Origin: an uncultured Ruminococcus sp.
Lineage (GTDB): Bacteria; Bacillota; Clostridia; Oscillospirales; CAG-382
Length of the DNA stretch: 64,000 nucleotides
NCBI GenBank assembly: GCA_964650045.1
Contig: CAZYRT010000006.1
Span: 3,576-67,575 of the forward strand
Direction: 5' to 3'
Position numbers and translations under genes: made by a program. The notes below the pieces were generated by a model, which saw nothing but the letters and a program-made list of their open reading frames with translations, was not told the DNA's origin and ran no database searches. This document shows, one piece after another, positions 17,746-60,043 of the stretch (the first letter of the stretch is position 1; every line of letters starts with the position of its first letter).

Positions 17746-17749
17746 TTCT

Positions 17750-34734: not shown

Positions 34735-34756
34735 AATATCCTCCTATGAACATTTC

Positions 34757-34789
34757 AGAGAAACGACCTCATAATGAGGTCGTTTCTCT
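34757..34789. terminator. Perfect 15-bp hairpin between the two paralogs
   Basis: The sequence is agagaaacgacctca-taa-tgaggtcgtttctct. It lies 13 nt after the upstream stop and 23 nt before the downstream start. No clean U-tract follows on the minus strand. Confidence 0.45.
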
Positions 34790-34801
34790 TTAATTATGAA
34801 A

Positions 34802-42012: not shown

Positions 42013-43071
42013 TTATCTAATATATTCTGCGAGATCATAATCTGATAAATGTTGATTAAAAGGATTCATATAGAATTCCTTTCTCTTTGAAAAATCTTTC
42101 CAAACAACAGAAATAAGTTTATAAGCTTCGGCAATGGATTTTTCGCACTCCTCAATGTTACCAAGCTTTTTATAACATGCGGCAATGCACTGATAAAAAC
42201 TCCAATGAAACGTCTGCATACCGTCCCAAAGATATTGTTCCGCTGGATCTTCATAAATATCGTTCAAAAGGAATGTTTCAAGCACACGAAGCCCTTTTTG
42301 ATAGCATTTAAAAGCCTTGGGAATATAATCGTCAGGAATATAATCGTCAGGAGTATAATCGCGGAACTTGACATCAGGATGCTCATTCATACGGAACCAA
42401 GCGTTTCCCTCTTCCATACATGCTCTATATAAGTTCTCCAAATGATAACATCTGGAAAAAATTGCAGCGTCAAGTTTATCCTTGCCGTATAAGCGAAAAG
42501 CAATAACGTCGTTGCGTATGCTGTAATTCTGCGGAAGTGTTTCCAACACATCTTTTGCTTTTTGGTATTCTTCTTTTTTCAGATATACTGCCGCTTGTGT
42601 TTCTTTTGCAAAGCTCACACGAACAAAATCTGTACTTTCTGTAATGATTTTTTGTGAAATCTCAATCATTTCATCTAAATGAGAAGTGTCTCCCTTATCA
42701 CGCAAGTTGTATTCGTATGCTTCCAAAAGTGCCAAAAGCAAATCCTCATTGCCCGGATATTCTTCCAAAGCGTTCATCATAATTTCGATATACTTTTGTG
42801 TATCATCGAAGAAGTATTCCCAAGCATCATCGATGAGCTTTTGAATTTTTGCTTTCATTTCACGAACATCATAATCGAACAGAATGTCCATAGATACCTC
42901 AAAATATCCTGCAATCACGGGGATCAGCTCCATATCGGGATAGGTAGTTCCGCTCTCCCATTTACTTACCGCTTGCGGGGAAACAGATAGCACAGAAGCA
43001 AGTCCTTCTTGGGTAATACCTTTCTTCTTACGAAGTTCACGTATTTTATTGCCTATATTTATATTTATCAT
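42013..43071 (-). CDS. XRE-family HTH regulator with a long helical-repeat (TPR-like) C-terminal domain
   Basis: The HTH_3 motif is IRELRKKKGITQEGLASVLSVSPQAVSKWESG. About 290 aa of helical-repeat sequence follow. ATG 43071 has a GGAGGTT RBS. Confidence 0.75.
   Translation of the reverse strand: MININIGNKIRELRKKKGITQEGLASVLSVSPQAVSKWESGTTYPDMELIPVIAGYFEVSMDILFDYDVREMKAKIQKLIDDAWEYFFDDTQKYIEIMMNALEEYPGNEDLLLALLEAYEYNLRDKGDTSHLDEMIEISQKIITESTDFVRVSFAKETQAAVYLKKEEYQKAKDVLETLPQNYSIRNDVIAFRLYGKDKLDAAIFSRCYHLENLYRACMEEGNAWFRMNEHPDVKFRDYTPDDYIPDDYIPKAFKCYQKGLRVLETFLLNDIYEDPAEQYLWDGMQTFHWSFYQCIAACYKKLGNIEECEKSIAEAYKLISVVWKDFSKRKEFYMNPFNQHLSDYDLAEYIR
42320..42364. repeat. 15-bp tandem repeat inside the regulator gene (2 perfect copies and 1 degenerate copy)
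   Basis: GGAATATAATCGTCA occurs twice, followed by GGAGTATAATCGCGG. This encodes DYTP-DDYIP-DDYIP on the minus strand. Confidence 0.9.
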
Positions 43072-43205
43072 AAAAACCTCCAAGTAATTATTGTGATGCG
43101 CTTCACTGATTAAAGAATAGCACATATAAAAAGCTTTTTCAACAACGCTATATTAGAAAAAAATCAACCAAAGGTTAAATCGGTTGAGCAAAAACCCTTA
43201 TAAGG

Positions 43206-43232
43206 AAGAAAAAGCCCCGTTCTAGACGGGGC
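43206..43232 (-). terminator. Intrinsic terminator after regulator 43239..44351
   Basis: The stem is gccccgt-tctag-acggggc. TTTTTCTTCC follows on the minus strand. Confidence 0.65.
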
Positions 43233-43238
43233 AAGTAT

Positions 43239-44351
43239 TTAATGAATACTATCAAGCATCTGCACACACTTTTGATATCTTGAATCATTTGAAATTATAT
43301 TATCATCTGTTTCAAAACACATATTGTAGCAACTGTTCAAATAGAATTTAAAATTGCTTTTAATTTCCTCGGCTACGTTAATGTTACCTTTCATTTTGCA
43401 TTCGTTATAATCAAGAATAAGTGTATCCGTAAGCTCCTCAATAACTTCAAAAGCTTTGTCAATTTCGGATATAGAAATATACTCATTGGCAAGATTATTT
43501 AATGCGCTATACAACCACTTTGTATGAAGAGTTATATCAGGAAACTTTTTATAATTAAACTTAATGCCTTCCAAAAAATCATACCAAGCAGCAATCGCAT
43601 CTTGCTTTCTTGAATCGCCGAGCAGCGATATTCTTCGTGCTCTTACTGCCAAAGCCCATAAATAATGCTGAACAGCTTCGCTGCATACAGAGTTTGAAAT
43701 GTCAACGCATTTCTCGAATTCGTTCTTTTTGGAGTATATCTCCATCTCCATCGAAGCTCTTATACTTCCTCTTTGCGGCAGTCCTTCCGCAATCGCTTCA
43801 GCATTCGGAAAATCGTTATGATAAAGATAAAGAATGATTAGTGTTTGCTTTGCATCAATAACTCTTGTTGTATTTCTATCGTAATTTATTACAGATTTCA
43901 AAAGGTTGATTGCTTCGTTATAAAACTTATCTTTTTCATCTGTTGAGCCTTGGCCGTAGTAAATATGTCTAAGTAAGCTATCCGCGCATAAAAGTTTGAC
44001 TTCATAATCAAAAGGGTATTTTTTGATATGCTCTTTATGCAAAACGTAGCTTTCATAATATGCATTATCATCACGGCTATAAACTTTTTCTATGCCCTTG
44101 TTTAGCTGTTCCACTTCTGCATAGAGCTTTTCTCTGTCTGCGTTTTCATCACCGCCGACACCAAGCAAACAGTCGGTAGTAACTCCAAGTATAGCGGCAA
44201 GCGGAACAATCTGTGAAATGTCAGGCATAGCGTTATCGCATTCCCACTTTGAGATTGACTGCACAGACACCATAAGTTTCTCTGCCAACTCCGCTTGTGT
44301 AAGCTGTGCACACTTTCTTATTTCCTTTAATCGTTGTCCGAAACTTGACAT
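43239..44351 (-). CDS. XRE-family HTH regulator with a TPR-like C-terminal domain (distant paralog of 42013..43071)
   Basis: The HTH_3 motif is LKEIRKCAQLTQAELAEKLMVSVQSISKWECD. ATG 44351 lies 7 nt after GAGGAA. Confidence 0.75.
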   Translation of the reverse strand: MSSFGQRLKEIRKCAQLTQAELAEKLMVSVQSISKWECDNAMPDISQIVPLAAILGVTTDCLLGVGGDENADREKLYAEVEQLNKGIEKVYSRDDNAYYESYVLHKEHIKKYPFDYEVKLLCADSLLRHIYYGQGSTDEKDKFYNEAINLLKSVINYDRNTTRVIDAKQTLIILYLYHNDFPNAEAIAEGLPQRGSIRASMEMEIYSKKNEFEKCVDISNSVCSEAVQHYLWALAVRARRISLLGDSRKQDAIAAWYDFLEGIKFNYKKFPDITLHTKWLYSALNNLANEYISISEIDKAFEVIEELTDTLILDYNECKMKGNINVAEEIKSNFKFYLNSCYNMCFETDDNIISNDSRYQKCVQMLDSIH

Positions 44352-44398
44352 TTTGCACTTCCTCACAAAATCTAAAACGATGTTCTATGTGTATTTCA

Positions 44399-45812: not shown

Positions 45813-45844
45813 AAAAAAGCTGTCGCTAATGCGACAGCTTTTTT
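45813..45844. terminator. Strong bidirectional intrinsic terminator at the end of the seven-gene operon
   Basis: The sequence is aaaaaagctgtcgc-taat-gcgacagctttttt. Confidence 0.75.
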
Positions 45845-45859
45845 ATGAAATCTAAGATA

Positions 45860-47047
45860 TTAACCTGTAATACCGCTACGTTCAACACCTTCGATAAGAG
45901 TTCTCTGAGCGAACAGATAAATAATAACAAGGGGAGCAAGAATAAGCAAACCGCAAGTATTCCTGATAGCAGACTCATAAGCAAGCTCTGCAACATAATC
46001 TGTATCCAAGGATTGAGGAATCTTTACGATATTAGGAAGAAGAATTGCATTTCTTGTACTTGTAAAGAACAAGCTGGTATAGAAGGTATCAGACCATTGC
46101 CACGAGAAGGAGAACATGAAAATTGTTACCATCATAGGAACAGCCATAGGAATAATTATACGAACGAATGTCTTAATTACGCCTGCACCGTCAACATATG
46201 CAGCTTCTTCCAATTCATCAGGAACGCCATTGAAATACTGACGCATCATGTAGATGAACAAGCCATTTTTAAATGCCAAACCGGTCAAGGAAAGTACTGC
46301 AAATGGCCAATAGCTGTTAAGCAGGTTAGGAGAATATATTTTCTCGGGATTTGAGAACAATACATCCATAACACCTACATCAGTAATACCCTTATTAGCA
46401 AAAGCTTGAACAAGAGCATCGTAGCCTGCCGAAGCACCGCCGTCATATGTAAGCATTGCAATCAAATTCTTAAAAAGATTAATTGTTCCATCATAGATTC
46501 CAAGAAAGTCAAACGCTTTAAATTTCATAAACATCGAAAGCTGAATGGTTTCATGAGGAACTATCATTGTGAAAATAACGCAAACAAATATAACCTTCTT
46601 GAATTTGAACTTAAACTTTGCAAAACCGTAGCCGACAATTGAACAAATCAAGGTTTGAGATACACCGCATAGCACAGAAAGCAAGGTTGTATTGAACAAA
46701 GCTTCAAAGTAATTGTTGTCGGTGATAATAGCCTTATACGTGTCAAGTGTGGGATTCATAGAGATAAGGTGAACCATTGTATTGGTAAAGTCATCTCTAT
46801 TCATAACCGAGCTGGCGATTTTAGAAATGTAGGGATAGATAATTACATAGGAAATACCTACGAGAAGTACGAATCGAAACAATGCCCAAGCAGCTTTCTT
46901 GGCAAAGTAAAGAGTCAAATACTTATAGCGGAGTCGCATAAGAAAAGGTGTTTTTTCGTCGGATTTGATCCTTTTTATAGCTTCTTCACGTTTGAGCTGC
47001 TTTTGATATTCTTTCAGCTCTTGTTTTGTCATAGTAGAAGTATCCAT
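45860..47047 (-). CDS. Carbohydrate-type ABC permease (MalG-like) with a long N-terminal extension
   Basis: The EAA loop is EEAAYVDGAGVIKTFVRIIIPMAVP. The protein is polytopic. An AAGGAGG RBS is present. Confidence 0.85.
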   Translation of the reverse strand: MDTSTMTKQELKEYQKQLKREEAIKRIKSDEKTPFLMRLRYKYLTLYFAKKAAWALFRFVLLVGISYVIIYPYISKIASSVMNRDDFTNTMVHLISMNPTLDTYKAIITDNNYFEALFNTTLLSVLCGVSQTLICSIVGYGFAKFKFKFKKVIFVCVIFTMIVPHETIQLSMFMKFKAFDFLGIYDGTINLFKNLIAMLTYDGGASAGYDALVQAFANKGITDVGVMDVLFSNPEKIYSPNLLNSYWPFAVLSLTGLAFKNGLFIYMMRQYFNGVPDELEEAAYVDGAGVIKTFVRIIIPMAVPMMVTIFMFSFSWQWSDTFYTSLFFTSTRNAILLPNIVKIPQSLDTDYVAELAYESAIRNTCGLLILAPLVIIYLFAQRTLIEGVERSGITG

Positions 47048-47064
47048 TTATGCTCCTCCTTTCA

Positions 47065-48081
47065 TTAAACATCTTTTCTTTGATAGAAGACGTATGCACT
47101 AAGCAATCCGGCAACAAGTGCAAGAACAACGACAACTATCAAGAAGTAAATCCAAGCCATTGCGGTAGAAACTTCTGTGTTACCATTGGAATAAACGGAA
47201 GAAATATAAGACATTACCGCATTTGATTCAGATGTAAAGGAGTCGATAATCGTATAAACGGCATTTACCAAAATCATGGGGCTTATCATCGGGAAGGTAA
47301 TCTTCCAGAAGGTTTCCCAAGAAGATGCACCATCGATATAACATGACTCATAAATTGCAGGAGAGATAGACTGCAAGCCTGCAAGAAAGATCAACATCTG
47401 TACACCGGATTTGTTTACGATGTCATAAACGTTGTTAATAAGGCCGGTTACATAAGTTACAAGCTCGCCGCCGATTTTCATACCTGAAAACAATCTACTG
47501 ATATCCATAGCAGAAACAATGCCTGCACCTTGTGTATCAGCATTAGCACCGGAACCGATAACATCAGAAGAACCTGCTGCAGTATCAACCATGTTCTCTG
47601 CGAGAGAGTTTTGAAGGTCGATAGATTCAATAATACCTGTAGAAACGATAACAGGGATAAAGAATATCGCTCTAAAAATCGCTCTGCCGCGCATCTTTTG
47701 GTTAAGAATAACAGCCATAAAGAGAGAGAAGATTACGATAGCAGGAACATTGAACAGAAGCTCTTTTACACTTGACCAAAGAGTTGTTGTAAACTGCGTA
47801 TCAGTCAAAAGAGCGTATCTGTAGTTTTCGAATCCAACAAACTCAAGAACATAACCACCGGTCTTTTGAATGATGATTTCATTAAATGAGAATGTGATAG
47901 ATTCAACGATCATGGGAAGATAAATTACTAAAAATCCGATTAGGAAGGGTGCTATGAACACCCAACCCATTCTGGACTTTTGAACATCGAGAGAACGCGA
48001 ACGTTTCTTTTCTGCCTTATTGGCTTTAGCCTCTTTTACAGGAGCTGTGTTTTTCTTTTTAATTGTTTCTTGTTTATTCAT
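47065..48081 (-). CDS. Carbohydrate-type ABC permease (MalF-like)
   Basis: The EAA loop is YESCYIDGASSWETFWKITFPMISP. ATG 48081 lies 7 nt after GGAGG and overlaps the upstream stop (TAATG). Confidence 0.85.
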   Translation of the reverse strand: MNKQETIKKKNTAPVKEAKANKAEKKRSRSLDVQKSRMGWVFIAPFLIGFLVIYLPMIVESITFSFNEIIIQKTGGYVLEFVGFENYRYALLTDTQFTTTLWSSVKELLFNVPAIVIFSLFMAVILNQKMRGRAIFRAIFFIPVIVSTGIIESIDLQNSLAENMVDTAAGSSDVIGSGANADTQGAGIVSAMDISRLFSGMKIGGELVTYVTGLINNVYDIVNKSGVQMLIFLAGLQSISPAIYESCYIDGASSWETFWKITFPMISPMILVNAVYTIIDSFTSESNAVMSYISSVYSNGNTEVSTAMAWIYFLIVVVVLALVAGLLSAYVFYQRKDV

Positions 48082-51014
48082 TATACACCCTCCCATGTTA
48101 TTGCTTCGCCATTTGCAGTAACTTTTACATATCCGTTAACAGGAACAACGATATCTGTACCTTCAACAGAATATGCCTTCTCGCCATAGTTTACATAGAA
48201 TACAACATCGTTATAGTATGTAACTTTAGCAACCTTGCCGTCTTCAGAAAGAATTTCATGCTTTCTGATTGCAGAGTATTTAACATCAGTCAAAGCATCA
48301 TTTACTGCGTTATATGCAGCAATGATATCATCCTTCCAGATATTATAACGTACAGAATAATACTTGTCAACTGCAGTATACTGATACTGTTTAAGCTCAG
48401 AAGTATTATTAGCAGCAATTACAAAATAGGGAGAAGCGCCGCTTTCAATAGTCTTAAGCAAATAGTAATCGTAGTCACCTGCAAGGTTAAGAGCGTTACC
48501 TGCATATTCTTTATATCCATGCAATACCATGCTCATGAAGGGTACGGTTGCATAGGAGTAAAGCAATCTGGAGTCATCCAACGGAACTTCAAGAATATCG
48601 GTAGCATAAGGCAAGGTATACTTATTACCTGCGGTAACAAGAAGTTTGTTATTACCATTATTCTTGATTTTTTCAAGCAATTGAACTATAAGTTCCTTAG
48701 AATCTTCTCTTGAAAGAGGATTATCAGGATCAAAGTCAGAAGAAAGATATTTGCCAAGTGTACCTACAGAAATGGCACCTACATTGAATTTGCTGTAATC
48801 TTCATTAGCAGAATCATAAAGCTCATTCATAAAGGAAGGAGAAATGATACCTTCACCCGTTTTAATAAATGACTGAGTGGCAGGATCGTAATCTTGTCTT
48901 ACAGAAGGACGTTCATCAATGGACTCAGACAAATCTTCATAAGTGTCGAATCCGTCGAATGTACCGTCGTTGTAAGCAAGAGAAAGCTCAATATCAGGGA
49001 AAATGGTAAAACCGTTTTGATTTGCATAATCAATAAGCTGTTTGAAGCCTTCTTCCCCACCGAGAACCTTTTCAACATCAATCGAGGTAGCAATATCGGG
49101 CATCAAGCCATCATTATACCAGCCCTGCATCTTAACCTTGATATTAGTAATGCTATCTTCGCCGTTGTCTTTAAGACCGCTAAGAATATCAATTGTATCC
49201 TGGAAAGATGTAAGAGCGATTGTAGAAAGTACAGGAACACCAAGTATAGACTTTGTTGTTTCAAGAGCACCAAGTGTTTCAAGATAGAGAGGAACATTAG
49301 CATCACCGCTATTATCTATCTCTGTAAGTACTCCGGTATTTTTAAGATATTCTCTATACGCAGCCGCCATATCGGAATATGATTTATCAGCATCGTAAAG
49401 AGCAGTAGCTTCATCTCCGTCTTCAGTACCGTCCAAAATGAACAATCTTAACTTGAAGTCACCGGTATACTTACGTTTGGACTCAACAGTCCACATCGCG
49501 TTAGTACCTACCGAAAGACCGCCGTCGAGTACATAGGAGTCCTTAGGACGGGGGTTGAAGGAAGTGTATATAGATGCATAGTTGTGAACAGGACCACCGT
49601 AGGAGATGTTGATCTTAGCAAGAGAGTCGCCCTCTTCAATAACTGCAAGATATGCAATTTCAAGAGGAACGTCAACAAGAACAGTTTCAGTCACAACATT
49701 GCCGTCTTCATCGTAAACGGGTTGACCGTTTTCATCAAGAACTTCCTTCACTTCTTCCTTCTTGCTATCCTTTTCAACACGCTGGTATACGCCGAATACA
49801 GGAAGTCTTGCAACTTCGCTATTTGCACCGGTAATTGTATGATAAGCATAGTCCTGACCGTACAGGCTGCTTGTATTAGTGAACTGTCCGGAAAGGTCAT
49901 CAAAGGAAATCAAGGACCCCGAACCATCGGGAGAGAAAATATAACCTGAGTTATTAACGTCACCTGCTCCGCCGTAAGGAAGAACAAGCACGTCGGAAAG
50001 CTTATAAACAGAGGAGTCGAATCTGATGTTACCAGCATTACATCTTATAGTGATCTGTTCGCCGTCAACCTTATATTCAAGAGCAAGTTTGAACAAAGGA
50101 GGAACATCGTCAGATGCAACATAATCTGTTTCAGAGTGGTCAGCTTCGAGAGTATCGTAATCGTAATCCGTGTAGGTCTTTACGTACTTTTCAAGCTTCA
50201 AAAGCTCCTGAGAGGAAATTGTAGGTTCACAAACATATATCGCAAATTGCTTTGTGATAGGATAGTTTGTTTCCATTTCCTTTTTACTCTTATCAGAAAG
50301 AGTAGAAGAATTCAAGTCATTCAAAACATAGAATGCCTTAAATCTTTCAGCAAGATATGCAGAGCCTTCAGAAATTTGAGTGTAAAGAGCATCGAATTTT
50401 TCGGCTCTAATTACACGAGGAACAAGATATGTTACCTGCTCACGACCGATGGTATATTCTACACGAACACCACCGCGGATATTCTTTACGGTAATCTGCT
50501 GTCTTGCAGCAGCATCTGCAAAGGAACTCATCTGAGAATCTTTATCACTCTTAGAATATTTAATTATGATCTGGGAAAGCAATTTCTGCTTTTCAGATGC
50601 ATCAGTTCCCTGTGTTTGGTTTTTTGCACGAGCAGCACCCGCGTTGTAAGGATTAGTGCAATAGAACGCGGTATATTCAGGAATAGAACCGCTTTCGACA
50701 ATATCTTCTTTTGTTAATGTCTTATCTTTAAGGACGAGGAAAATCATTTCACCTGTGAGAGTATCACCGTAAAATGCATATCCATCAATAACAGTCAAAA
50801 GATCCATAGGTTCGATTTCACCGCTGCCAAGAATACGTTCCTTAACAGAACTAAAAGCTGTATTCATGTAAGCAGGTTTAACAGTAGCTTCCCAAATATC
50901 ATCCCATGTGACCTCGTCATCATCTGCAGCAGATGCCATCAAACCGGTCATTGAGGAAAACAGCATGAATGCACAGAGAGTGAGTGCAAGCAACTTAATA
51001 AATTTATTTTTCAT
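48081..51014 (-). CDS. Large secreted protein (~977 aa) of unknown function (possibly DUF5696-like)
   Basis: The signal peptide is MKNKFIKLLALTLCAFMLFSSMTGLMASA. I found no recognisable catalytic motif. The C-terminal half has an alternating strand/helix pattern. Start ATG 51014 is preferred over GTG 51026. Confidence 0.7.
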   Translation of the reverse strand: MKNKFIKLLALTLCAFMLFSSMTGLMASAADDDEVTWDDIWEATVKPAYMNTAFSSVKERILGSGEIEPMDLLTVIDGYAFYGDTLTGEMIFLVLKDKTLTKEDIVESGSIPEYTAFYCTNPYNAGAARAKNQTQGTDASEKQKLLSQIIIKYSKSDKDSQMSSFADAAARQQITVKNIRGGVRVEYTIGREQVTYLVPRVIRAEKFDALYTQISEGSAYLAERFKAFYVLNDLNSSTLSDKSKKEMETNYPITKQFAIYVCEPTISSQELLKLEKYVKTYTDYDYDTLEADHSETDYVASDDVPPLFKLALEYKVDGEQITIRCNAGNIRFDSSVYKLSDVLVLPYGGAGDVNNSGYIFSPDGSGSLISFDDLSGQFTNTSSLYGQDYAYHTITGANSEVARLPVFGVYQRVEKDSKKEEVKEVLDENGQPVYDEDGNVVTETVLVDVPLEIAYLAVIEEGDSLAKINISYGGPVHNYASIYTSFNPRPKDSYVLDGGLSVGTNAMWTVESKRKYTGDFKLRLFILDGTEDGDEATALYDADKSYSDMAAAYREYLKNTGVLTEIDNSGDANVPLYLETLGALETTKSILGVPVLSTIALTSFQDTIDILSGLKDNGEDSITNIKVKMQGWYNDGLMPDIATSIDVEKVLGGEEGFKQLIDYANQNGFTIFPDIELSLAYNDGTFDGFDTYEDLSESIDERPSVRQDYDPATQSFIKTGEGIISPSFMNELYDSANEDYSKFNVGAISVGTLGKYLSSDFDPDNPLSREDSKELIVQLLEKIKNNGNNKLLVTAGNKYTLPYATDILEVPLDDSRLLYSYATVPFMSMVLHGYKEYAGNALNLAGDYDYYLLKTIESGASPYFVIAANNTSELKQYQYTAVDKYYSVRYNIWKDDIIAAYNAVNDALTDVKYSAIRKHEILSEDGKVAKVTYYNDVVFYVNYGEKAYSVEGTDIVVPVNGYVKVTANGEAITWEGV

Positions 51015-51035
51015 AATTCTATACACTCCTTTCTA

Positions 51036-53228
51036 TTACCATCGCTGTGATAGCTCAACATAAATCTGGTTGAAGAATGCAACAACTCTCATAATAAGAG
51101 TGGAGAACAGTCCAGCCAAGAAGATTATAAATGCCACGCCTACGATTGAAACAATTGTAGTGATTACATTCTTGCCGAGAGTATAATCGTGTGTAACCAT
51201 CATTCCGCAGAATACAAGCAGGAACAACCAAACAAATGCAAAACTTTCAATCATACTAACTAATTCAAGCTCGGTGATTGTCAAGAAATTAGAAATCAAA
51301 ACCGAAGGAATTATAAGCATGGGAAGAGGAACAAGAGAATAACAGGTTGCTATGAAAACATCCTTAAGGCTGCCTTCGCCCTCGAAAAGTGTGGTAATAC
51401 ACCAGTTAGCGATTACCCACAAAACAACAGGTGCAAGAATAGATACAGCAGACATGAAGAAGGATGTTGTGTTACCCTGAGGATTGGACAAATAGCCCTT
51501 GCCCACAGACTGATATACAAATGTTACAGCAGTAACAGCAAGCCAGAAAACCGCACCGCGAATTGAACCGCGTTTTTCGTGCTTCAAATCCCAGAAACCA
51601 TCAAACGGATGGAAAATTATATGGAAACCATAAAGAATTTCCTCCGCGAAGGTTCTGTTATCCTTCATTTTTTGTCCTGCTTTGTTTACTTTATTTGCGT
51701 AGCCAAAGAATTTCATCAATCCAAAGATAACAGCAAAGAGTACAACAGGAATTACCCAAAGGTATTTTTCCATCCATTCTTTACGGTAGGATTGGAACGC
51801 CTCAGAATAGTCTTCAGTATTGTAAGCATACTTATAATACTTCATAGCCTGATCGTACTTACCGTCACGATACAAGCTGTCTGCTATTCCTACATATGCA
51901 GCATCATAGTTGTTATTACGCTGAAGAATGCTTACATAATAGTTAACTGCGAGGTCATACTGCTTATCTTCAGTATTTTGAATAGCCGCAGCAAGCAAAT
52001 CACCATAACCTGTACGCTTTAAAACAGTAATGGAATTATTAGCTCTATCAAGCAAAAGCATGTTAGTATCTTGATAGTCAATAGCAACAAGGTTAGCTAT
52101 ATTACCAAGCTGAGTACCCTTATCACCGAAGGCAAAGAGAAGATTACCTGCGGAATCATAAGTGAATACCCTACTGCGATTATTATCGATGATACTCCAA
52201 GTATTGTTCGGACCGAGAGCAACGTCAACGATAGAAGAAGGACCGCCTTCGGAATCGGAACCGACAGTAGTACCCATATCGATCTCACCGATAGGAGCCC
52301 AGAAGCCGTTTCTTACCATGACGTCAGTACCGTTGGGATTAAGCTTCTTAACAGGAGCATATTCGCCTGTCTTATCTTCGGCACTGATAGAAGAAAGAAT
52401 AGCTTCAGCATTTGTAGTTACATAAATAAAACCGTCTTTATCAATACAAAGATTATTAAATTCGGTTGAAACGTTAGATTCACTGGCTGCTCTCTGTTCA
52501 GCTGTTTGGAAAAGTCTAAGGAAGTATTCCAAAGCATCGTAAGTAACCTTTTGAGGACCAATAAATCCGTTAAATGAACCGTCACGGTTAATGGAAATTA
52601 CACCGTAGTTGGTTGTGGAAGATACAACATAAATACGGCCTGCCTTGTCAACCGCCAAAGCAACAGGAGTATAAATGCTGTTTTCAGGAAGAATTTCACT
52701 TGCAGGCTCGGGAACAATATCAACAAAGTTACCAAGCTTATCAAAAATTACAATTCTTGAATTGTTAGTATCAGCAACATAAATTTCAGTATCGGTAACA
52801 AAGACGCCGTTAGGAGCACTCAAGCTATCGGGTACACCAAATTTATTTGTAAAACTATCAATTACGAGACGAATATTAAACTCTTCATCAGTAACAACGA
52901 TCTCGTTGTTATTTGTGTTTGCGATATAAACATGACCAAGATCATCTACAAAGATATCCTTAGGCATATTCAATCCTGTGAAAGCACCGGTATTAGCATA
53001 ACGAAGCTTTGCATTATCGCTTGCGCCGCCATCGGGCTCCAATGAAGCCAAAAGTGTAGCACTATCGATAATCTTAACAGGAGTATACGCATCAGGGCTA
53101 CGCATCATAAGCCCATCAACGCCGTAGGTATATGTAGTATAAGGTGTAATCGCGCTTGCGGAGATAGTGCCAACCAGCATTATCAAAACAAGACCGACAA
53201 GCAGCACTTTTGTGATTTTGCTTTTCAT
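51036..53228 (-). CDS. Fusion protein: signal peptide, NHL-repeat beta-propeller, TPR-like segment and C-terminal Yip1-type polytopic membrane domain
   Basis: NHL-like repeats include HVYIANTNNNEIVV, IYVADTNNSRIVIFD and RIYVVSS. The TPR-like segment is YDAAYVGIADSLYRDGKYDQAMKYYKYAY. About 6 C-terminal hydrophobic helices are present. A GGGGGAAG RBS is present. Confidence 0.75.
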   Translation of the reverse strand: MKSKITKVLLVGLVLIMLVGTISASAITPYTTYTYGVDGLMMRSPDAYTPVKIIDSATLLASLEPDGGASDNAKLRYANTGAFTGLNMPKDIFVDDLGHVYIANTNNNEIVVTDEEFNIRLVIDSFTNKFGVPDSLSAPNGVFVTDTEIYVADTNNSRIVIFDKLGNFVDIVPEPASEILPENSIYTPVALAVDKAGRIYVVSSTTNYGVISINRDGSFNGFIGPQKVTYDALEYFLRLFQTAEQRAASESNVSTEFNNLCIDKDGFIYVTTNAEAILSSISAEDKTGEYAPVKKLNPNGTDVMVRNGFWAPIGEIDMGTTVGSDSEGGPSSIVDVALGPNNTWSIIDNNRSRVFTYDSAGNLLFAFGDKGTQLGNIANLVAIDYQDTNMLLLDRANNSITVLKRTGYGDLLAAAIQNTEDKQYDLAVNYYVSILQRNNNYDAAYVGIADSLYRDGKYDQAMKYYKYAYNTEDYSEAFQSYRKEWMEKYLWVIPVVLFAVIFGLMKFFGYANKVNKAGQKMKDNRTFAEEILYGFHIIFHPFDGFWDLKHEKRGSIRGAVFWLAVTAVTFVYQSVGKGYLSNPQGNTTSFFMSAVSILAPVVLWVIANWCITTLFEGEGSLKDVFIATCYSLVPLPMLIIPSVLISNFLTITELELVSMIESFAFVWLFLLVFCGMMVTHDYTLGKNVITTIVSIVGVAFIIFLAGLFSTLIMRVVAFFNQIYVELSQRW

Positions 53229-53239
53229 ACACTTCCCCC

Positions 53240-54157
53240 TTAATCCTTCATACCGGATGCAGACATTGTAGTAATAACGTTACTCTGAGTTACTACGAAT
53301 ACCAAAATCGGTACTATCATCATTACAACGGTAGATGCGGCAGATACACCGGAACGTGCAATACCTGCAGTTACCAACTGGCTGATCGCATAGTTGAAGG
53401 TTTTGAGCTGTTCACTATAAATGTAGAGGTTTGCACCCATGTGCCACAAATCTTTAAATACGAAGATTATAAGAGTGATCCATGCGGGTTTAACCATTGG
53501 CATCGCAATCTTCCAGAAGATAAGGTTTTCGCCGGCGCCTTCAAGACGAGCACTTTCAAGAACGGAATCGTTTACAGAAGTTTCCATAAACTGTTTCATC
53601 AAGTAAAGACCGAAGGTGTAGCACCATGCAGGAACAATTACTGCCAAGTAGCTGTCAACCCAACCGAGAGCTGACATAGTGATAAAGTTTGTAATACCGG
53701 TAACAGTAGAGTTAAACATCAAAGAATAAACAACTACCGAAAACAGGAATTGTCTACCGGGGAACTTAATCTTCGCCAATGCATACGCTGCATAAGAAGC
53801 CAAGATAACGTTACCAAAGGTACCCATACCGGAAATAAATACAGTATTGAATATGTATCTGGAGAAAGGTACCCATGATTCGTTCATAAGGTTGAACAAA
53901 TCTTTAAAGTTTTTAAACGTAGGATTTACCACGAAGAAACGCGGAGGAAATACAAACAATTCATCAAGGGGCTTCAAAGATTGGCAAATAGAATATACCA
54001 AAGGCAAAACCATTATTACAGCAATAATCGCCAACATAATGAAGATACCAACATCGCCGCCCTTGGAACGGTTAATTGAACGGGTAAACTGAGTTTTGTT
54101 TTGAAGTCTCTTATTGCGGTAGCGAACGTATTTAGATTTTAATTCAGCAAAATTCAT
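53240..54157 (-). CDS. Carbohydrate-type ABC permease (MalG/UgpE-like)
   Basis: The EAA loop is ESARLEGAGENLIFWKIAMPMVKP and the protein has six TM helices. Confidence 0.9.
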   Translation of the reverse strand: MNFAELKSKYVRYRNKRLQNKTQFTRSINRSKGGDVGIFIMLAIIAVIMVLPLVYSICQSLKPLDELFVFPPRFFVVNPTFKNFKDLFNLMNESWVPFSRYIFNTVFISGMGTFGNVILASYAAYALAKIKFPGRQFLFSVVVYSLMFNSTVTGITNFITMSALGWVDSYLAVIVPAWCYTFGLYLMKQFMETSVNDSVLESARLEGAGENLIFWKIAMPMVKPAWITLIIFVFKDLWHMGANLYIYSEQLKTFNYAISQLVTAGIARSGVSAASTVVMMIVPILVFVVTQSNVITTMSASGMKD

Positions 54158-54158
54158 A

Positions 54159-55094
54159 TTACGTACCTACCTTTCTAAGCATTTTAGTAACAAGCATGTT
54201 AGCACCAATCATCAAGAAGAAGAGGATGGTAGCAATCGCGGAAGCATAGCCCATTTCAAAACGTGAGTTACCGTAGTCTTCCAAATGGTGCATTATTGTA
54301 TGAGCACAGTAGTTAGGGCTGGGGAAACCAACGAGGGCGGTAATTACAGCACCAAAACCAAAGGACTGTGTAATAGCAAGAATAGCACCGAGCATCATTT
54401 GAGGACGCATTGTAGGAAGCGTAATGTACCAAAGCTCTTGCCAACGGTTTTTAACACCGTCAACCGCTCCTGCTTCATAAAGGGACTTATCAACTACCTG
54501 GAAGCCTGCGATAAAGGTAAGGAACGAGGTACCGAGGGAGGTCCAAAGAGCAACTGCAATAATCAAGGGGAAAATGTATGTTTCATCTTGGAACCAAAGA
54601 ACAGGTTCAGTGAGCAATCCCAACTTCTTACCCCACGCATTAACGAACCCATATTGGTCAGAGGAAAATAAAATGGTCCAAATGAGGTAAACGTTACCGG
54701 AGATCGAAGGAGCATAGAACATAAGTGTCGCAACAGCTCTTACCTTAGGACGAAGTTCATTGATGAACCATGCAAAAAGCATGGACAACAGATAAGAACC
54801 GGGACCTGTGATCATAGAAAACTTAAAGGTATTAAGAATAGCGGTGATAAAGATATCGTCATCCAAGAGAAGTCTGATATAGTTATCCATGAAAATGAAA
54901 TCAGGCCATTCCAAAAGGTTGAAAGAGGTAAAGCTAAGAATAAAGGAAAGTACAACAGGAAGAACAGTAAAGGTGAAGAAAATCAAGAAGAAAGGAAAGA
55001 CCATGAAATAGCCTGCCTTGTTTTTCTTCATTTCGTTTATAGTCCACTGGAAGCGAGTCATATCACTTCTGATGACAGCTTTTTCTTTTGCCAT
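54159..55094 (-). CDS. Carbohydrate-type ABC permease (MalF/UgpA-like)
   Basis: The EAA loop is YEAGAVDGVKNRWQELWYITLPTMRP. Its ATG overlaps the SBP stop (TAATG). Confidence 0.9.
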   Translation of the reverse strand: MAKEKAVIRSDMTRFQWTINEMKKNKAGYFMVFPFFLIFFTFTVLPVVLSFILSFTSFNLLEWPDFIFMDNYIRLLLDDDIFITAILNTFKFSMITGPGSYLLSMLFAWFINELRPKVRAVATLMFYAPSISGNVYLIWTILFSSDQYGFVNAWGKKLGLLTEPVLWFQDETYIFPLIIAVALWTSLGTSFLTFIAGFQVVDKSLYEAGAVDGVKNRWQELWYITLPTMRPQMMLGAILAITQSFGFGAVITALVGFPSPNYCAHTIMHHLEDYGNSRFEMGYASAIATILFFLMIGANMLVTKMLRKVGT

Positions 55095-58000
55095 TATTCA
55101 TTACCTCCCTTCTCCCAATTAGGATATTTCTCTTCTACAACAGACTCCATATCTTTAATATCATCCGATGTAGGCAGCCCAAACTCTTCTCTCTTGCGCG
55201 AGAGTTCAACATTAATGTCGGTAATTTGTGACTGAAGTTCTTCGACAGGTTCAGCATCCTTGTTAATAACATCGAGGAACGCAAAGCTTGTATGACGTGA
55301 TGTGATGTAACTTCCGGGGTATTCGGGAGTACAAGCAACTGCCTTAAACTGAGAGAACAAATTGTTGTATTCATCTGTAGACCAAGCCATATTTGCAAGA
55401 GCTTCAATGTTTGCGGTAGGCTGCTTAGCGGAAGGACCGAGAAGAGCAACCATTTCATTACCGTAAGCACTTTGAATCTCAGAGCTGAGATACCATTGCA
55501 TAAATGCCCATGAACCAAATGCAGCTACAGGATCATCACTTACGGAATTCATCATCATAATCGCGGATACCGCACCAATGGTAACGTTATTGATTTCCTG
55601 AGTAAGCTCATCAGCAGTACCGGGAAGAGGTGTAAATTCCCAAAGACCATTGATTTCGGGGGCGAATACGATAAGAGTATTGTAAGAAGTATAGTCAGCG
55701 ATCGCCAAGGGCATTTCACCTGAACGGAAACGGTTTGCAAAATCGTATACTGTGGGGAAACTGTACATTGTAAAGAATTGGCATACATCCTTAAATGTAG
55801 CAAGAGCAATATCCGAATCGAGGTTAATCGTCATACCGTCTGTCTTAGGTCTAACATTACCCTCATCATCAAGATATGTCCATCCCTTAGCCGCAATCTG
55901 TGCATCAACCTCTGCAAGCTGCTCGTCGGATATATTACTATAGTCACCTTCATAATAATATCTACGGAAAAGTTCCATATAGTAATCATAATCACCTTGG
56001 TCATACAAAGGTTCATCCTGCTGATACATCATAATGATAGAACCGCCTGTACCCTGAGGGAAACCGATTTCCAACGCGTTGGATTGCAAAGAATAGATTA
56101 TATCGTAAAAGTCATCCCATGTATTAGGAATTTCGACACCCAACTCAACAAAAATATCTTTACGATAGAACATCATCGAGAAGGACATTGTTGCAGGCAA
56201 AGCATAAGTCTCACCATACAATGTCAAAGGAACGAGAGCTTGTTCAGCAAACCAACCGGTTTCCTTATCGGTAATCTCGTCAAAGCTCTTTACAGTACCG
56301 TTTTGGATAAGCTTGCTAAATTGAGGATATTTAGCTTCGTCATTCCAAATAGAAGATTCGAGATCGCTAAAGTCGTATCCTATAGAAGTATCGCCTGTCT
56401 TAGTATTAAGAGAAAGAACAGCGGAACGAATAGCATAGTTAACAGGATCCCCCTGTGCAGCGCCCATATATACATCGGGACCTGTTCCGGAAAGTGTAGC
56501 AGGAAGCAATGTACCACCGGCAACAAGCTTAATGTTCACTTTAATACCGGGATGGTTGGGAGCAAAATTATCGTCAACCAAAGTTCTCAAAATTTGAGCC
56601 TGGTCACGAGAAGTCGCAGTCCACACTTCAACAGCAACATTAGAAGTATCGTCCCCTTGTGTTGTTGCACCAAGGTTGTTATAGTCGCTGAAGAAAGACT
56701 GATAGAACTTCTGGATTTCATACCACAAACCTCCCCAGAAACCGGGTTCAGCCTGAGGTGCTTCCGATTGAACAGCCTGAATGCTGATATAGTCAATATC
56801 AAGAGGCTGGTTCTGTGTATCGGAAAGCCAAGAACCGAGAGACGCGCTATAGTCCTTAAGTGTTGTCATATTTGCTGCGATTTCGTCAGGAAGAGTACCC
56901 ATACGCTCACAAATAAGCGCAACACGGTCAAGAGTTGTTGAATGTTCACCCTTTTCACCTACAAGTTCAGTGAGAAGGTTAGACACACGGTAAAGCTGTT
57001 CGGATTCATATTTCAATCCGTTAAGAACATCAGGAATAAGCTTATCAAAGCTATAGTCACGGTATTCATCAGCATCAGGACCGGTGATCATAAGTATTTT
57101 TCTATAGTAGCCGTTTATAGCAGAAAGAGAGTTTTCAACGGTACTGAGAACTTCAGACATGTCACCAAGAACAACTTCGAATCTAATGATGTTTTCACCT
57201 TCTTTAAGATAGAACTTAAAGTCTGTGGTGCCATCGTTCAAAGGCTTGGTCTGCCAATCCGCAGAATAATTAAATCTCAAATTTCCTGCTTCAGCAAAAG
57301 GCAATTCACCGTTGATATAAATTTTTCTGGAAACATATATACCGGAATAATAGTTCTGTTGGCTCCTGGGAATAATAGAATAGAAACCTTCTTGAGGGAC
57401 ATTGACTTTCCATTCGATCCACTGACCAACATACTGCCATTTATCACCACCGATTTCATTGAGACGGATAAGTGCAGCATCCTGAGGTTCAGAATAACTG
57501 GAAGATCTGTCATTCAAAGCATAAATGGTATTGCCGGAAGTACAAATAGGATATTCAGCCTGAATCTTATAGCTTTCAGCACCAGTGTAATCAGTTACAC
57601 CCATGTTGGTATATTTCTGAACATACTGCTCATAGGAAACAGTTTCCTCAGCAGCAACAAGTTTGATGCTCTTGATAGCCATAGGCTCTCTTATAGATTG
57701 GAAGCTGATAGTGTGTGTACCTGCAGAAAAATAGAATGATAAAGGTTCGCTGTAATAACCTGTAGAGTCATACACGAATTTATCAAGCCATGTTTCAACA
57801 AGCACTTTGTCAGGTTTCAACTCATTCCCATTGGTATCCTTAAAGAAAAGACGATCGCTGTCTACGGCGAGATTAGCTTGGTCGGTAACGAACTGCTTGA
57901 ATTCATCACTGGTAGACAACAAGTAATCTTTTGTAACACCGTCTTCCTTATAAATATAGTTACCGTTCTCATCCGCACGAGAATAAGCATCTGCCCACAC

Positions 58001-58558
58001 TTTATCGAATTCAACCGAACGTGCTTCCTTATAAGGAACCAGTCCGTCGATAAGAACATATCTTTCAGCAGCAGACGATTTAGCAATGAGATTGTCTCCG
58101 TAATTAAAATCACCGGTGTAATATTCGACCTTAATGTTATATCTAACATCCTTTTCGAAGTTCACAGTCCAAGTAACAGTACTGTTGTCACCGCAAATGA
58201 GAACCGCGCCGTCACTACCACCGAGACCATCGGTAACAACCTCAATTGCGCCGGAAGACCAGATTCTATCTTCGTCTTCTTCGCTCAATTCGCCTTCGGG
58301 CTTAATGTCATAGTTGGTGATATCTATCTCCAGTTCTTCGCCCATCGGAACATTACCGTAAATGCTCATGTACTCGTCGTAAGTGGTAGCAGTAAGAACG
58401 CTCTCCACGTCTTCCAACGAAGTACGGTAAATGGACTCGTTGCCGTTGAAGTAATCACCCACAGCCGAAGCACTAATCCCGCCGAAGCTCGTCATTAAGA
58501 TCGAGAACAGCAGCAGATAAATGCAAAAACTTTTGGTTTTTCTCCTGTTTCCAGTCAT
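55094..58558 (-). CDS. Giant (1154 aa) extracellular solute-binding protein with a ~600-aa N-terminal extension containing CBM-like beta-sandwich modules
   Basis: The signal peptide is type I (..GGISASA) with no lipobox. N-terminal segments such as GQWIEWKVNVPQEGFYSIIP..IYINGE..LKEGENIIRFEV resemble CBM6/35-type modules. The C-terminal ~550 aa look like a family-1 SBP. An AGGAGG RBS is present. Confidence 0.8.
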   Translation of the reverse strand: MTGNRRKTKSFCIYLLLFSILMTSFGGISASAVGDYFNGNESIYRTSLEDVESVLTATTYDEYMSIYGNVPMGEELEIDITNYDIKPEGELSEEDEDRIWSSGAIEVVTDGLGGSDGAVLICGDNSTVTWTVNFEKDVRYNIKVEYYTGDFNYGDNLIAKSSAAERYVLIDGLVPYKEARSVEFDKVWADAYSRADENGNYIYKEDGVTKDYLLSTSDEFKQFVTDQANLAVDSDRLFFKDTNGNELKPDKVLVETWLDKFVYDSTGYYSEPLSFYFSAGTHTISFQSIREPMAIKSIKLVAAEETVSYEQYVQKYTNMGVTDYTGAESYKIQAEYPICTSGNTIYALNDRSSSYSEPQDAALIRLNEIGGDKWQYVGQWIEWKVNVPQEGFYSIIPRSQQNYYSGIYVSRKIYINGELPFAEAGNLRFNYSADWQTKPLNDGTTDFKFYLKEGENIIRFEVVLGDMSEVLSTVENSLSAINGYYRKILMITGPDADEYRDYSFDKLIPDVLNGLKYESEQLYRVSNLLTELVGEKGEHSTTLDRVALICERMGTLPDEIAANMTTLKDYSASLGSWLSDTQNQPLDIDYISIQAVQSEAPQAEPGFWGGLWYEIQKFYQSFFSDYNNLGATTQGDDTSNVAVEVWTATSRDQAQILRTLVDDNFAPNHPGIKVNIKLVAGGTLLPATLSGTGPDVYMGAAQGDPVNYAIRSAVLSLNTKTGDTSIGYDFSDLESSIWNDEAKYPQFSKLIQNGTVKSFDEITDKETGWFAEQALVPLTLYGETYALPATMSFSMMFYRKDIFVELGVEIPNTWDDFYDIIYSLQSNALEIGFPQGTGGSIIMMYQQDEPLYDQGDYDYYMELFRRYYYEGDYSNISDEQLAEVDAQIAAKGWTYLDDEGNVRPKTDGMTINLDSDIALATFKDVCQFFTMYSFPTVYDFANRFRSGEMPLAIADYTSYNTLIVFAPEINGLWEFTPLPGTADELTQEINNVTIGAVSAIMMMNSVSDDPVAAFGSWAFMQWYLSSEIQSAYGNEMVALLGPSAKQPTANIEALANMAWSTDEYNNLFSQFKAVACTPEYPGSYITSRHTSFAFLDVINKDAEPVEELQSQITDINVELSRKREEFGLPTSDDIKDMESVVEEKYPNWEKGGNE

Positions 58559-58588
58559 TTCGTTTCCTCCTAAGAGAGTGCTTAATGA

Positions 58589-58608
58589 TAGCTAGGCACA
58601 ACTAGCTA
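58589..58608. promoter_or_regulatory. Perfect 7-bp inverted repeat (TAGCTAG-N6-CTAGCTA) between the -10 element and the RBS of the operon
   Basis: Read directly from the sequence. It is a candidate operator or 5'-UTR stem-loop. Confidence 0.35.
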
Positions 58609-58624
58609 CAATATTTATATAAGA

Positions 58625-58653
58625 ATAATAGCACATTGATAACTTTTTGTCAA
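58625..58653 (-). promoter_or_regulatory. Sigma-A-type promoter of the seven-gene operon
   Basis: On the minus strand it reads TTGACA, a 17-nt spacer, then TGcTATTAT, about 65 nt upstream of the ATG at 58558. Confidence 0.5.
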
Positions 58654-59086
58654 GTATGCATATAAAACCACAACCAAAATAATGCAATTTTAACACATCG
58701 TTTGTGAATGATTACAACTTAGCAGCAAAAAAGCAACACATTTTTTTCGCATTTTTACACACCCACGTCACAAAAAGTCTTATCACAGCCACAATTCTTT
58801 TTAGAACAATATAAGCCAATAAGAAGATGGGGTTATAGCTGATTTTGCTTTGAAAATAAAGCAAATTCAACATAAGCATATTTAAATAAATTATTATAAA
58901 ATCCGTTCATCCGCATAACTTAATCCAAAATTTTCCGTCAATTCGTTTATCTAAAATGCGATATTTTTCACCAAAAATCGCATTGTGCAAATGCAACAAA
59001 ATATCATCAGACTTTTCTACACTTTGCACAGCGAAACAAAACTTATGTTCTTTGATGTTTTTAACTTGTTCAATTCAACTCAATTA

Positions 59087-60043
59087 TTAGGGTAATTTTA
59101 TTGTTACAATATAGCCGTCAGATCCATCTCCCGAAACCTCATATTTATACGAAGAATCAACGGGAACATTCACATAAGTTGTATTTGCTTTTTCATCTCG
59201 AGGAACATAATAAACAACATATTTCGCCCCCATGTCATTAGCAGCTCCGCTTTCAAATTCAATAACCTTCTTGGTTTTTATTTCGTCAATATATTCTTCT
59301 AAAGACAAGTTATGAAAACTCATGTACCAACTATGAGCAATACCTACATATCGATATATCGAAGGATCAGCATCAAAACCTGTATAAACCTCTTTTCCAA
59401 ATGGATAACGTTCTATCAGTCCATATTCATAGCTTCTGTCTCTCAAATAGCTGTATTCAGCATCGGAAAAACTGTATGATCCGGTGAAGATAGTTAGTTC
59501 AAATGATAATCCTGTTGCCAATTCTATTTCAGGCTCGGATATATCAATAACGTCAGGAGAAACATATCCGTTTAAAATGCCGACACCATTTTGGGGAACC
59601 TCATCATAGAAATCCAATATCAGTTTATCAATATTTATAATGGCATCTTCATAGGCTATCAAGCTATAATCGCGCAAGCCGTACTTATCCGATGAACGAA
59701 CCGCAGCAACATTTGACAATGTATCTTTATCGATCGCTGTAATTTGATTCTTATTTTTAAGCAAAGCCAAATTGCCTTTATATATCTTATCATTAGTAAA
59801 CGCACAGTTGCTCATTTTAATATTGTCATAATATTTATATTCCTGTTCCGGTTCGGACACAGCCTCGGAAACGATTTCGCTCACTACATAGCTCGATTCA
59901 GACGATCCAGAATAAACATCAGAAACAACATCCATTTTTTCATCACCAAACTTCCCCAACGCAACAATATATGATGAAAGCACTATTACAGATATTACGG
60001 CAGTAATAAGAAAAGCGGATGATGTTTTATTATTCTTATTCAT
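59087..60043 (-). CDS. Membrane-anchored VanY/LdcB-like (peptidase M15B) domain protein with substituted zinc ligands
   Basis: An N-terminal TM helix is present. The C-terminal block YEYGLIERYPFGKEVYTGFDADPSIYRYVG..LSLEEYI matches the VanY signature. However, SEH..D reads SEPEIELATGLSFEL and EPWH reads DPSIY. Confidence 0.7.
   Translation of the reverse strand: MNKNNKTSSAFLITAVISVIVLSSYIVALGKFGDEKMDVVSDVYSGSSESSYVVSEIVSEAVSEPEQEYKYYDNIKMSNCAFTNDKIYKGNLALLKNKNQITAIDKDTLSNVAAVRSSDKYGLRDYSLIAYEDAIINIDKLILDFYDEVPQNGVGILNGYVSPDVIDISEPEIELATGLSFELTIFTGSYSFSDAEYSYLRDRSYEYGLIERYPFGKEVYTGFDADPSIYRYVGIAHSWYMSFHNLSLEEYIDEIKTKKVIEFESGAANDMGAKYVVYYVPRDEKANTTYVNVPVDSSYKYEVSGDGSDGYIVTIKLP

Follow-up and report, generated by a model that had tools for sequence, protein, structure and literature searches.

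The window analysed here is a 64,000-nucleotide stretch of DNA from an uncultured Ruminococcus sp. (assembly GCA_964650045.1, contig CAZYRT010000006.1, positions 3,576 to 67,575 of the forward strand). It contains a seven-gene operon that we read, with a probability of about 0.6, as encoding a CUT1-type (MalFGK2-like) importer of oligosaccharides or glycans with two translocators and a tethered extracellular complex. Its architecture of seven fixed parts combines twin translocators with an unanchored giant binding protein, a scaffold of the Yip1 type and a GH129-like protein in which catalytic residues are missing; we have found no description of this distinct variant. Listing of the open reading frames (ORFs), with Pfam and NCBIfam scans of their products, placed seven minus-strand ORFs at 45860-58558. 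The order is giant binding protein, P1, P2, NHL-TPR-Yip1, DUF5696, P3 and P4, as follows (lengths in amino acids, aa):

55094-58558, minus strand: giant binding protein, 1154 aa
54159-55094, minus strand: P1, a MalF/UgpA-like permease with an EAA loop, 311 aa
53240-54157, minus strand: P2, a MalG/UgpE-like permease with an EAA loop, 305 aa
51036-53228, minus strand: NHL-TPR-Yip1 membrane protein, 730 aa
48081-51014 (ORF open to 51026), minus strand: DUF5696 protein, secreted, 977 aa (981 aa from 51026)
47065-48081 (ORF open from 48096), minus strand: P3, a MalF/UgpA-like permease with an EAA loop, 338 aa (343 aa from 48096)
45860-47047, minus strand: P4, a MalG-like permease with an EAA loop, 395 aa

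From the first gene to the last the intergenic spacings are -1, 1, 11, 21, -1 and 17 nt, assuming a DUF5696 start at 51014 and a P3 start at the TAATG at 48081, both of which are database gene calls. An initial annotation, made by a model from the sequence alone, had described a packed seven-gene operon with spacings of -1 to 21 nt and a TAATG start at 48081, encoding twin permease pairs, an oversized binding protein and two non-transporter exoproteins. The ORFs and spacings agree with that description, and the domain scans confirmed the composition. Judged from sequence, the seven genes are one conserved transcription-unit-like cassette.

Species-representative genomes were scanned with patterns derived from DUF5696, which returned 291 stretches encoding a relative, and 80 of these 291 loci were analysed. 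All seven window proteins were then compared by tblastn with 87 loci, comprising the 80 from the scan and seven found earlier. The cassette order was complete in 68 of the 87 loci, and the remaining 19 were collinear but cut by contig ends; none deviated. Compared with the window proteins, identity across these loci ranged from 34 to 75% in the binding protein, from 37 to 100% in DUF5696 and from 55 to 90% in both P1 and P2. These loci come from uncultured Clostridia of the rumen, hindgut and human gut, under labels such as Oscillospiraceae, Eubacteriales and ‘Ruminococcus’. Two plasmids, pNP243 of Butyrivibrio fibrisolvens D1 and one of Paenibacillus cellulosilyticus, also have the seven genes in this order, with the DUF5696 protein 26% identical in each case, so that the order is common to two classes of Bacillota. 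A search of the entire plasmid collection found the three large proteins in these two places only (Butyrivibrio and Paenibacillus), always together. A lack of conserved gene order, which the initial annotation had named as grounds for abandoning its proposal, was thus not seen (order kept in 87/87), and the DUF5696/YIP1/permease neighbourhoods that it mentioned are indeed present in other Firmicutes.

All four permeases scored above the Pfam BPD_transp_1 cutoff, with best NCBIfam similarities to UgpA, UgpE, MalF and MalG, and an EAA loop could be read in each. As the loops are present in both pairs, P1P2 and P3P4 should each dock an ATPase dimer. Extra residues are found in the external loops of P3 (~75 aa) and P4 (~85 aa). 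P1/P3 and P2/P4 are distant paralogues sharing at most 24% identity. A recent duplication of the permease pairs was considered and rejected, P1 and P3 being only 24% identical and P2 and P4 aligning only locally.

No ABC_tran domain was detected in the operon proteins by Pfam or NCBIfam. The sole ATP-binding cassette (ABC) ATPase of the window (19379-20512) is a PotA equivalog within a potABCD-like operon, and for this reason was ruled out as the partner of the cassette. The operon to which it belongs is a complete polyamine importer:

16489-20512, minus strand: potABCD-like polyamine ABC importer operon, its ATPase passing the NCBIfam spermidine/putrescine equivalog cutoff

The initial annotation was therefore right that the operon lacks a nucleotide-binding subunit. 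However, this is probably no anomaly. On the Paenibacillus plasmid the binding-protein gene of the cassette is preceded, at a distance of 37 nt, by a gene for a UgpC-subfamily ATPase (464 bits, cutoff 432), and CUT1 importers of Firmicutes normally share ATPases of the MsmX type.

The giant binding protein was modelled with AlphaFold2 (pLDDT 79.8) as a signal peptide, beta-sandwiches at residues ~100-300 and ~330-465, a helical bundle at 467-582 and a bilobed domain at ~640-1150. The top Foldseek matches of the bilobed domain are oligosaccharide-binding proteins (E ~1e-15, TM-score 0.70-0.77), so the structure-based check suggested by the initial annotation recovered a MalE-like oligosaccharide-binding fold. 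Among these matches are binders of cycloisomaltooligosaccharide, cycloalternan, sophoro-oligosaccharide and maltodextrin, and the acarbose receptor GacH. SBP_bac_8 was detected in 30 of 43 orthologues, and SBP_bac_1 scored 77-81 bits for the orthologues of Butyrivibrio and Paenibacillus. CBM_35 was sub-threshold in the window protein (15.8 bits, cutoff 28), and weak matches were present in 14 of the 43 orthologues (best E 4.9e-4). A profile of the N-terminal region matched residues 437-516 of a cycloisomaltooligosaccharide glucanotransferase (CITase, 5x7g) at E 7e-4, and further chains at E 0.07-0.2; these matched segments we take to be CBM35 modules. As modelled, the binding protein is modular: a pair of beta-sandwiches, of which the second is CBM35-like, is followed by the helical bundle and then by the MalE-like domain for oligosaccharide binding. 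No lipobox or other anchor was found in the binding protein or in the DUF5696 protein. Both carry signals of the signal-peptidase-I type, and a conserved ASA motif in the binding protein fits cleavage by signal peptidase I.

Only one of the three large proteins, NHL-TPR-Yip1, has membrane anchoring. Pfam recognised Yip1 (PF04893, 56.7 bits, cutoff 28.6, residues 536-704), NHL (45.4 bits) and TPR_19; together with the hydrophobic segments of the sequence, these give a layout of signal peptide, extracellular propeller and TPR region, one transmembrane helix and a multi-spanning Yip1 domain. By PDB sequence search the NHL region matches solved NHL propellers, including the extracellular sensor domain of PknD. 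On pNP243 (locus L088, 9615-11710) the annotation assigns the NHL propeller and the Yip1 part to separate, overlapping genes, reflecting either a genuine split or a frameshift. An accessory role has a precedent in Bacillus, where YknW, a protein of the Yip1 family, modulates how the ABC transporter YknXYZ is assembled (PMC4887032). The YknWXYZ system of Bacillus subtilis resembles the cassette in encoding a Yip1-domain membrane protein with an ABC transporter. However, YknYZ is a MacB-type exporter whereas the cassette would be a type-I importer, and YknW lacks the NHL propeller and TPR ectodomain.

The DUF5696 protein matches Pfam DUF5696 (PF18952) at 486.3 bits (cutoff 25.6). An AlphaFold2 model built from 43 homologues (pLDDT 82.7, pTM 0.79) consists of a beta-sandwich, a (beta/alpha)8 barrel and a second beta-sandwich. 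Foldseek searches of the PDB with this model returned the following:

GH129-like 3,6-anhydro-D-galactosidase DagB (5opq), E 6e-28, TM-score 0.69
GH129 alpha-N-acetylgalactosaminidase NagBb (5wzn), E 2e-19
GH101, E 1e-14
GH31 and GH36, E 1e-9 to 1e-11

Profile comparison agreed. Residues 221-360 of NagBb scored 44 bits against Pfam DUF5696 (cutoff 25.6), and hhalign of the cassette DUF5696 family with 53 GH129 representatives gave a probability of 99.3% (E 1.3e-20, 374 columns). A PDB sequence search with DUF5696 gave no match, and its profile version only NagBb at E 2.8; Pfam scans of the 43 members at E<=10 found no glycoside hydrolase (GH) family. The relationship is thus visible only by fold search and profile-profile comparison, not by plain sequence search. 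The initial annotation had seen no recognisable glycoside hydrolase in the operon, which holds for a plain Pfam scan, but by fold and profile DUF5696 is a homologue of GH129/GH101 in which the catalytic residues are missing.

In NagBb, Asp435 lies in the context ‘YLDVF’ and Glu478, presumably the acid/base, in ‘SSEEV’. These positions are 96% Asp and 92% Glu, respectively, across the 53 GH129 representatives, and Asp435 is a catalytic residue of NagBb (PMC5698469). The canonical nucleophile position, at the end of beta4 (Asp435 of NagBb, Asp486 of DagB), is occupied by Ser749 in the window protein. In 52 cassette proteins this column contains Ser 42 times, Ala seven times, Gly once and Asp twice, the last only in Butyrivibrio and Paenibacillus. 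The acid/base position falls opposite a gap or Thr794, in a column of S/T/N/A/D, although the alignment is remote and a shift of one or two residues is possible; no conserved acidic residue was found near this position in the cassette DUF5696 alignment. The Butyrivibrio orthologue has Asp here too. Moreover, the GH129 ‘HD’ motif is ‘HG’ in the cassette proteins. All 52 sequences agree at eight residues (D687, Y709, D760, R769, N797, H832, N843 and E857), and nearly all at E770 and D771, and on the strength of the invariant barrel residues a conserved ligand pocket can be argued.

DUF5696 and GH129 (NagBb, DagB) or GH101 therefore share a common three-domain fold and profile-level homology. Shared with GH129 specifically are a beta2 motif (LDGW / MQGW), an Arg after beta4 and a His after beta7. 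In contrast to GH129, window-clade DUF5696 proteins have Ser, Ala or Gly for Asp435, lack Glu478 and carry ‘HG’ for ‘HD’. They also lack the Cys and His residues found in the DECxxPxH...C...C stretch of GH129, have an additional beta-rich N-terminal region of ~300 aa and are encoded within an ABC transporter operon. Judged by these alignments and profiles, DUF5696 is a homologue of GH129 without being a canonical member of that family. In a distant clade (loci L075, 10001-14386, and L083) the orthologues are 1461 and 1457 aa long and contain an alanine-rich, apparently coiled-coil insert of ~480 aa between the barrel and the last beta-sandwich; the insert accounts for the ~1.7 kb of extra DNA before the P3 gene in these loci.

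Since DUF5696 has neither the nucleophile nor the acid/base, glycan binding or presentation is probable rather than hydrolysis, and a glycan-binding pseudo-enzyme is the more likely state of the window clade. A non-canonical catalytic mechanism is the main alternative. On that account, which we consider possible though clearly the less probable of the two, the locus would be an ordinary Gram-positive polysaccharide utilisation locus (gpPUL). DUF5696 would be an active extracellular glycosidase, using for example D760 with D687, E770 or D771, and its products would be imported by both translocators. Several acidic residues of the barrel would be available for this, D687 and D760 being invariant and E770 and D771 nearly so in the 52 cassette proteins, and the nucleophile Asp is kept in Butyrivibrio and Paenibacillus, the former with an Asp at the acid/base position as well. 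DagB provides a case of a relocated acid/base, as it keeps only the Asp435 equivalent (PMC5698469). However, it is the Asp that DagB keeps; a relocated acid/base therefore has a precedent, and loss of the Asp does not. To our knowledge, no retaining glycoside hydrolase of this clan works without the beta4 Asp, and this position is Ser, Ala or Gly in 50 of the 52 cassette proteins, all 52 of which also have ‘HG’ in place of ‘HD’.

Proteins of glycosidase fold have been recruited to transporters elsewhere. The SLC3 heavy chains (4F2hc, rBAT) have a glycosidase-fold ectodomain without catalytic residues and act as ancillary subunits of heteromeric amino-acid transporters. They are eukaryotic, GH13-like and covalently linked to an SLC7 carrier, and offer only a functional analogy to the role proposed for DUF5696, with no evolutionary relationship.

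Our preferred interpretation, a CUT1-type importer with two translocators and a tethered exo-complex, would work as follows. The permeases would form two separate heterodimers, P1P2 and P3P4, both powered by one shared UgpC/MsmX-type ATPase whose gene would lie in another part of the genome. The two beta-sandwich modules of the giant binding protein would hold the polymeric substrate, the helical stalk would project the protein from the membrane, and the MalE-like domain would deliver oligosaccharide to at least one translocator. The DUF5696 pocket (D687, D760, R769, N797, H832) would bind and present glycan, or cleave it non-canonically. NHL-TPR-Yip1 would tether the two anchorless secreted proteins beside the translocators and help assemble the complex, as YknW does for YknXYZ. 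The analysis itself establishes gene content, folds, homologies, replaced residues, gene order, promoter and terminator, whereas the physical complex, the tethering role, the class of substrate and the extracellular partner of P3P4 are inferred.

Several points weigh against this interpretation. The tethering and complex model is built on the YknW analogy and on the absence of anchors, and the substrate of the cassette cannot be named. That DUF5696 has lost the catalytic residues is deduced from alignments with 12-16% identity. In the window itself, the binding protein does not reach the Pfam thresholds and has weak matches only to sugar-binding proteins. There is no ATPase, regulator or classical glycoside hydrolase in or beside the operon within the window, and the flanks of four distant metagenome-assembled loci likewise have no conserved catabolic, ATPase, regulator or classical glycoside hydrolase genes. 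Finally, the permeases are unusually conserved (55-90%) and a VanY-like gene is syntenic with the cassette, which could point to a housekeeping or cell-envelope role.

A bolder arrangement of the same parts, which we regard as unlikely, is that the cassette represents a new class of multi-component ABC importer. Here a dead, GH129-like DUF5696 would serve as the substrate receptor of P3P4, the second translocator, whose external loops are enlarged and which lacks a dedicated binding protein. The NHL-TPR-Yip1 scaffold would join this receptor with the giant, CBM-bearing binding protein in a surface exo-complex feeding long glycan chains into two channels.

A role in cell-envelope maintenance appears more doubtful still. 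In this case the substrate would be wall or capsule glycopolymer of the cell itself, recycled or remodelled by the cassette, and foraging would not be its purpose. The idea draws on a gene that most related genomes also keep immediately upstream of the cassette:

59087-60043, minus strand: VanY-like gene for a membrane-anchored protein of 318 aa, the C-terminal domain of which resembles VanY-type D-Ala-D-Ala carboxypeptidases (E 1e-21, not reaching the cutoff of the family)

Its synteny in most relatives, at 26-49% identity, and the high conservation of the permeases are consistent with an envelope function. So too are the isolated position of the cassette, which has no catabolic genes around it in the window or in any of the four distant loci inspected, and an Amidase_3 gene elsewhere in the window. 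However, the VanY-like gene forms a separate transcription unit: between it and the cassette are 530 nt of spacer, in which the conserved cassette promoter is located. Moreover, the carriers are mostly fibre-associated Clostridia of the rumen or hindgut, and in Butyrivibrio the cassette is joined to a GH43 gene and a YesM-type two-component system, which are typical of plant-glycan loci.

The Butyrivibrio locus is informative in its detail. At its start the binding-protein gene overlaps the GH43 gene; genes for a YesM-type kinase and for a response regulator adjoin, and two ordinary binding-protein genes follow the cassette. The absence of a regulator or classical glycoside hydrolase, as first reported, therefore stands for the window but not for its relatives, and the Butyrivibrio regulators and GH43 place the cassette among Gram-positive glycan-utilisation loci, not outside them. 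On the Paenibacillus plasmid (locus L089, 15874-25097) the cassette is directly followed by four genes for LLM-class flavin-dependent oxidoreductases; scattered among these are one gene for an NADPH-dependent oxidoreductase and two for ordinary solute-binding proteins.

Signals for transcription of the operon were located at both ends. The upstream region was aligned between the window and 10 related species.

58657-58699, minus strand: conserved block and candidate operator, ATGTGTT..TTGCATTAT ... TATATGCA, an imperfect inverted repeat directly upstream of the -35 box
58625-58653, minus strand: sigma-70-type promoter TTGACA-17-TATTAT, TG-extended, matching the consensus at 11/12 positions
58589-58608, minus strand: hairpin in the 5′ untranslated region (UTR), immediately following the -10 box, with arms TAGCTAG / CTAGCTA
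45813-45844, minus strand: intrinsic terminator, a 14-bp hairpin with a U-run (dG -23.3 kcal/mol, z = -6.9)

In this alignment the -35 box is invariant, the TG-extended -10 box is mostly so, and the columns of the block TTGCATTAT...TATATGCA are nearly invariant across the 11 species. The inverted repeat is a candidate operator for a regulator of the cassette. The 5′-UTR hairpin has a consensus 10-bp stem across 10 species; its arms vary in sequence yet stay complementary, and four base pairs show compensatory changes on both sides. It may be an mRNA-stabilising or regulatory stem. A ribosome-binding site is readable in the sequence before the first gene. The single promoter and the single strong terminator said at the outset to bracket the operon were thereby both confirmed.

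A further promoter-like site (TTGACA-17-TATAAT, 48370-48342, minus strand) matches the consensus at 12/12 positions inside DUF5696, ~260 nt upstream of P3. It was rejected as a real internal promoter and is probably a chance match, as neither hexamer is conserved in 11 relatives; the site overlies conserved YYSVRY codons. It is the one feature in favour of the view that the locus holds two unrelated ABC importers and two unrelated exoproteins, chance neighbours possibly transcribed separately from an internal site, a view we consider very improbable because the order is identical in 87/87 loci across two Bacillota classes and the three large proteins co-occur strictly, and against which stand also the overlapping stop and start codons and a conserved promoter upstream where the internal site is not conserved.

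Compared with known systems, the cassette is closest to the CUT1 importers (MalEFGK2, UgpBAEC, MsmX-powered; TC 3.A.1.1). It shares with them MalF/MalG-like pairs with EAA loops and a MalE-fold domain; a gene for a UgpC/MsmX-type ATPase adjoins the Paenibacillus cassette, and in Firmicute CUT1 systems the ATPase gene is often unlinked. Unlike them, it has two permease heterodimers for one binding protein in a single operon, and two obligatory extra exoproteins (NHL-TPR-Yip1 and DUF5696). The binding protein itself is 2.5x the usual size, with beta-sandwich modules and a helical bundle and no lipid anchor, and P3 and P4 have their extra external loops. The clustering of an ABC sugar transporter with glycan-active proteins recalls gpPULs, particularly in the Butyrivibrio version with its GH43 and YesM/YesN-type two-component system. 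However, the window locus has no regulator or catalytically competent glycoside hydrolase, and the conserved unit is a seven-gene cassette, not a variable set of enzymes.

In a literature search that excluded subscription journals and supplementary tables, no published functional study of the cassette was found, nor any mention of DUF5696 or PF18952, nor any link of Yip1 proteins to sugar ABC importers or to polysaccharide utilisation. This agrees with the remark in the initial annotation that DUF5696/YIP1/permease neighbourhoods had received no functional study. Its proposal of an undescribed surface capture-and-uptake system holds in that no published description was found, but the kind of system is known, being that of the CUT1 importers and Gram-positive glycan loci.

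Two other pairs of genes in the window were noted:

42013-44366, minus strand: two tandem genes of ~370 aa with N-terminal XRE-type helix-turn-helix domains, the first with weak TPR matches
31624-37936, minus strand: two tandem paralogous genes of ~1040 aa, with F5/8 type C (discoidin) and DUF4855 (316-351 bits) domains and a cadherin-like / Big_9 C-terminal domain

The first pair lies downstream of the cassette terminator and was not seen beside the cassette in the relatives examined; its architecture is reminiscent of RNPP-type peptide-sensing regulators. To judge from their domains, the proteins of the second pair are probably further uncharacterised surface glycan-active proteins.

The whole cassette appears to be kept by about 290 species-level genomes of Clostridia from rumen and gut, besides Butyrivibrio and Paenibacillus, and we know of no studied homologue of any of the three large proteins in such a setting. 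Two of the carriers are cultured (B. fibrisolvens D1 and P. cellulosilyticus KACC 14175), which makes the model directly testable. If it is true, DUF5696 would be placed in the GH129/GH101 superfamily as a likely pseudo-enzyme, and bacterial Yip1 proteins would gain a second example of an accessory role for an ABC transporter. It would also show how Gram-positive fibre degraders, which have no outer membrane and no SusCD, assemble a tethered complex for glycan capture and import.

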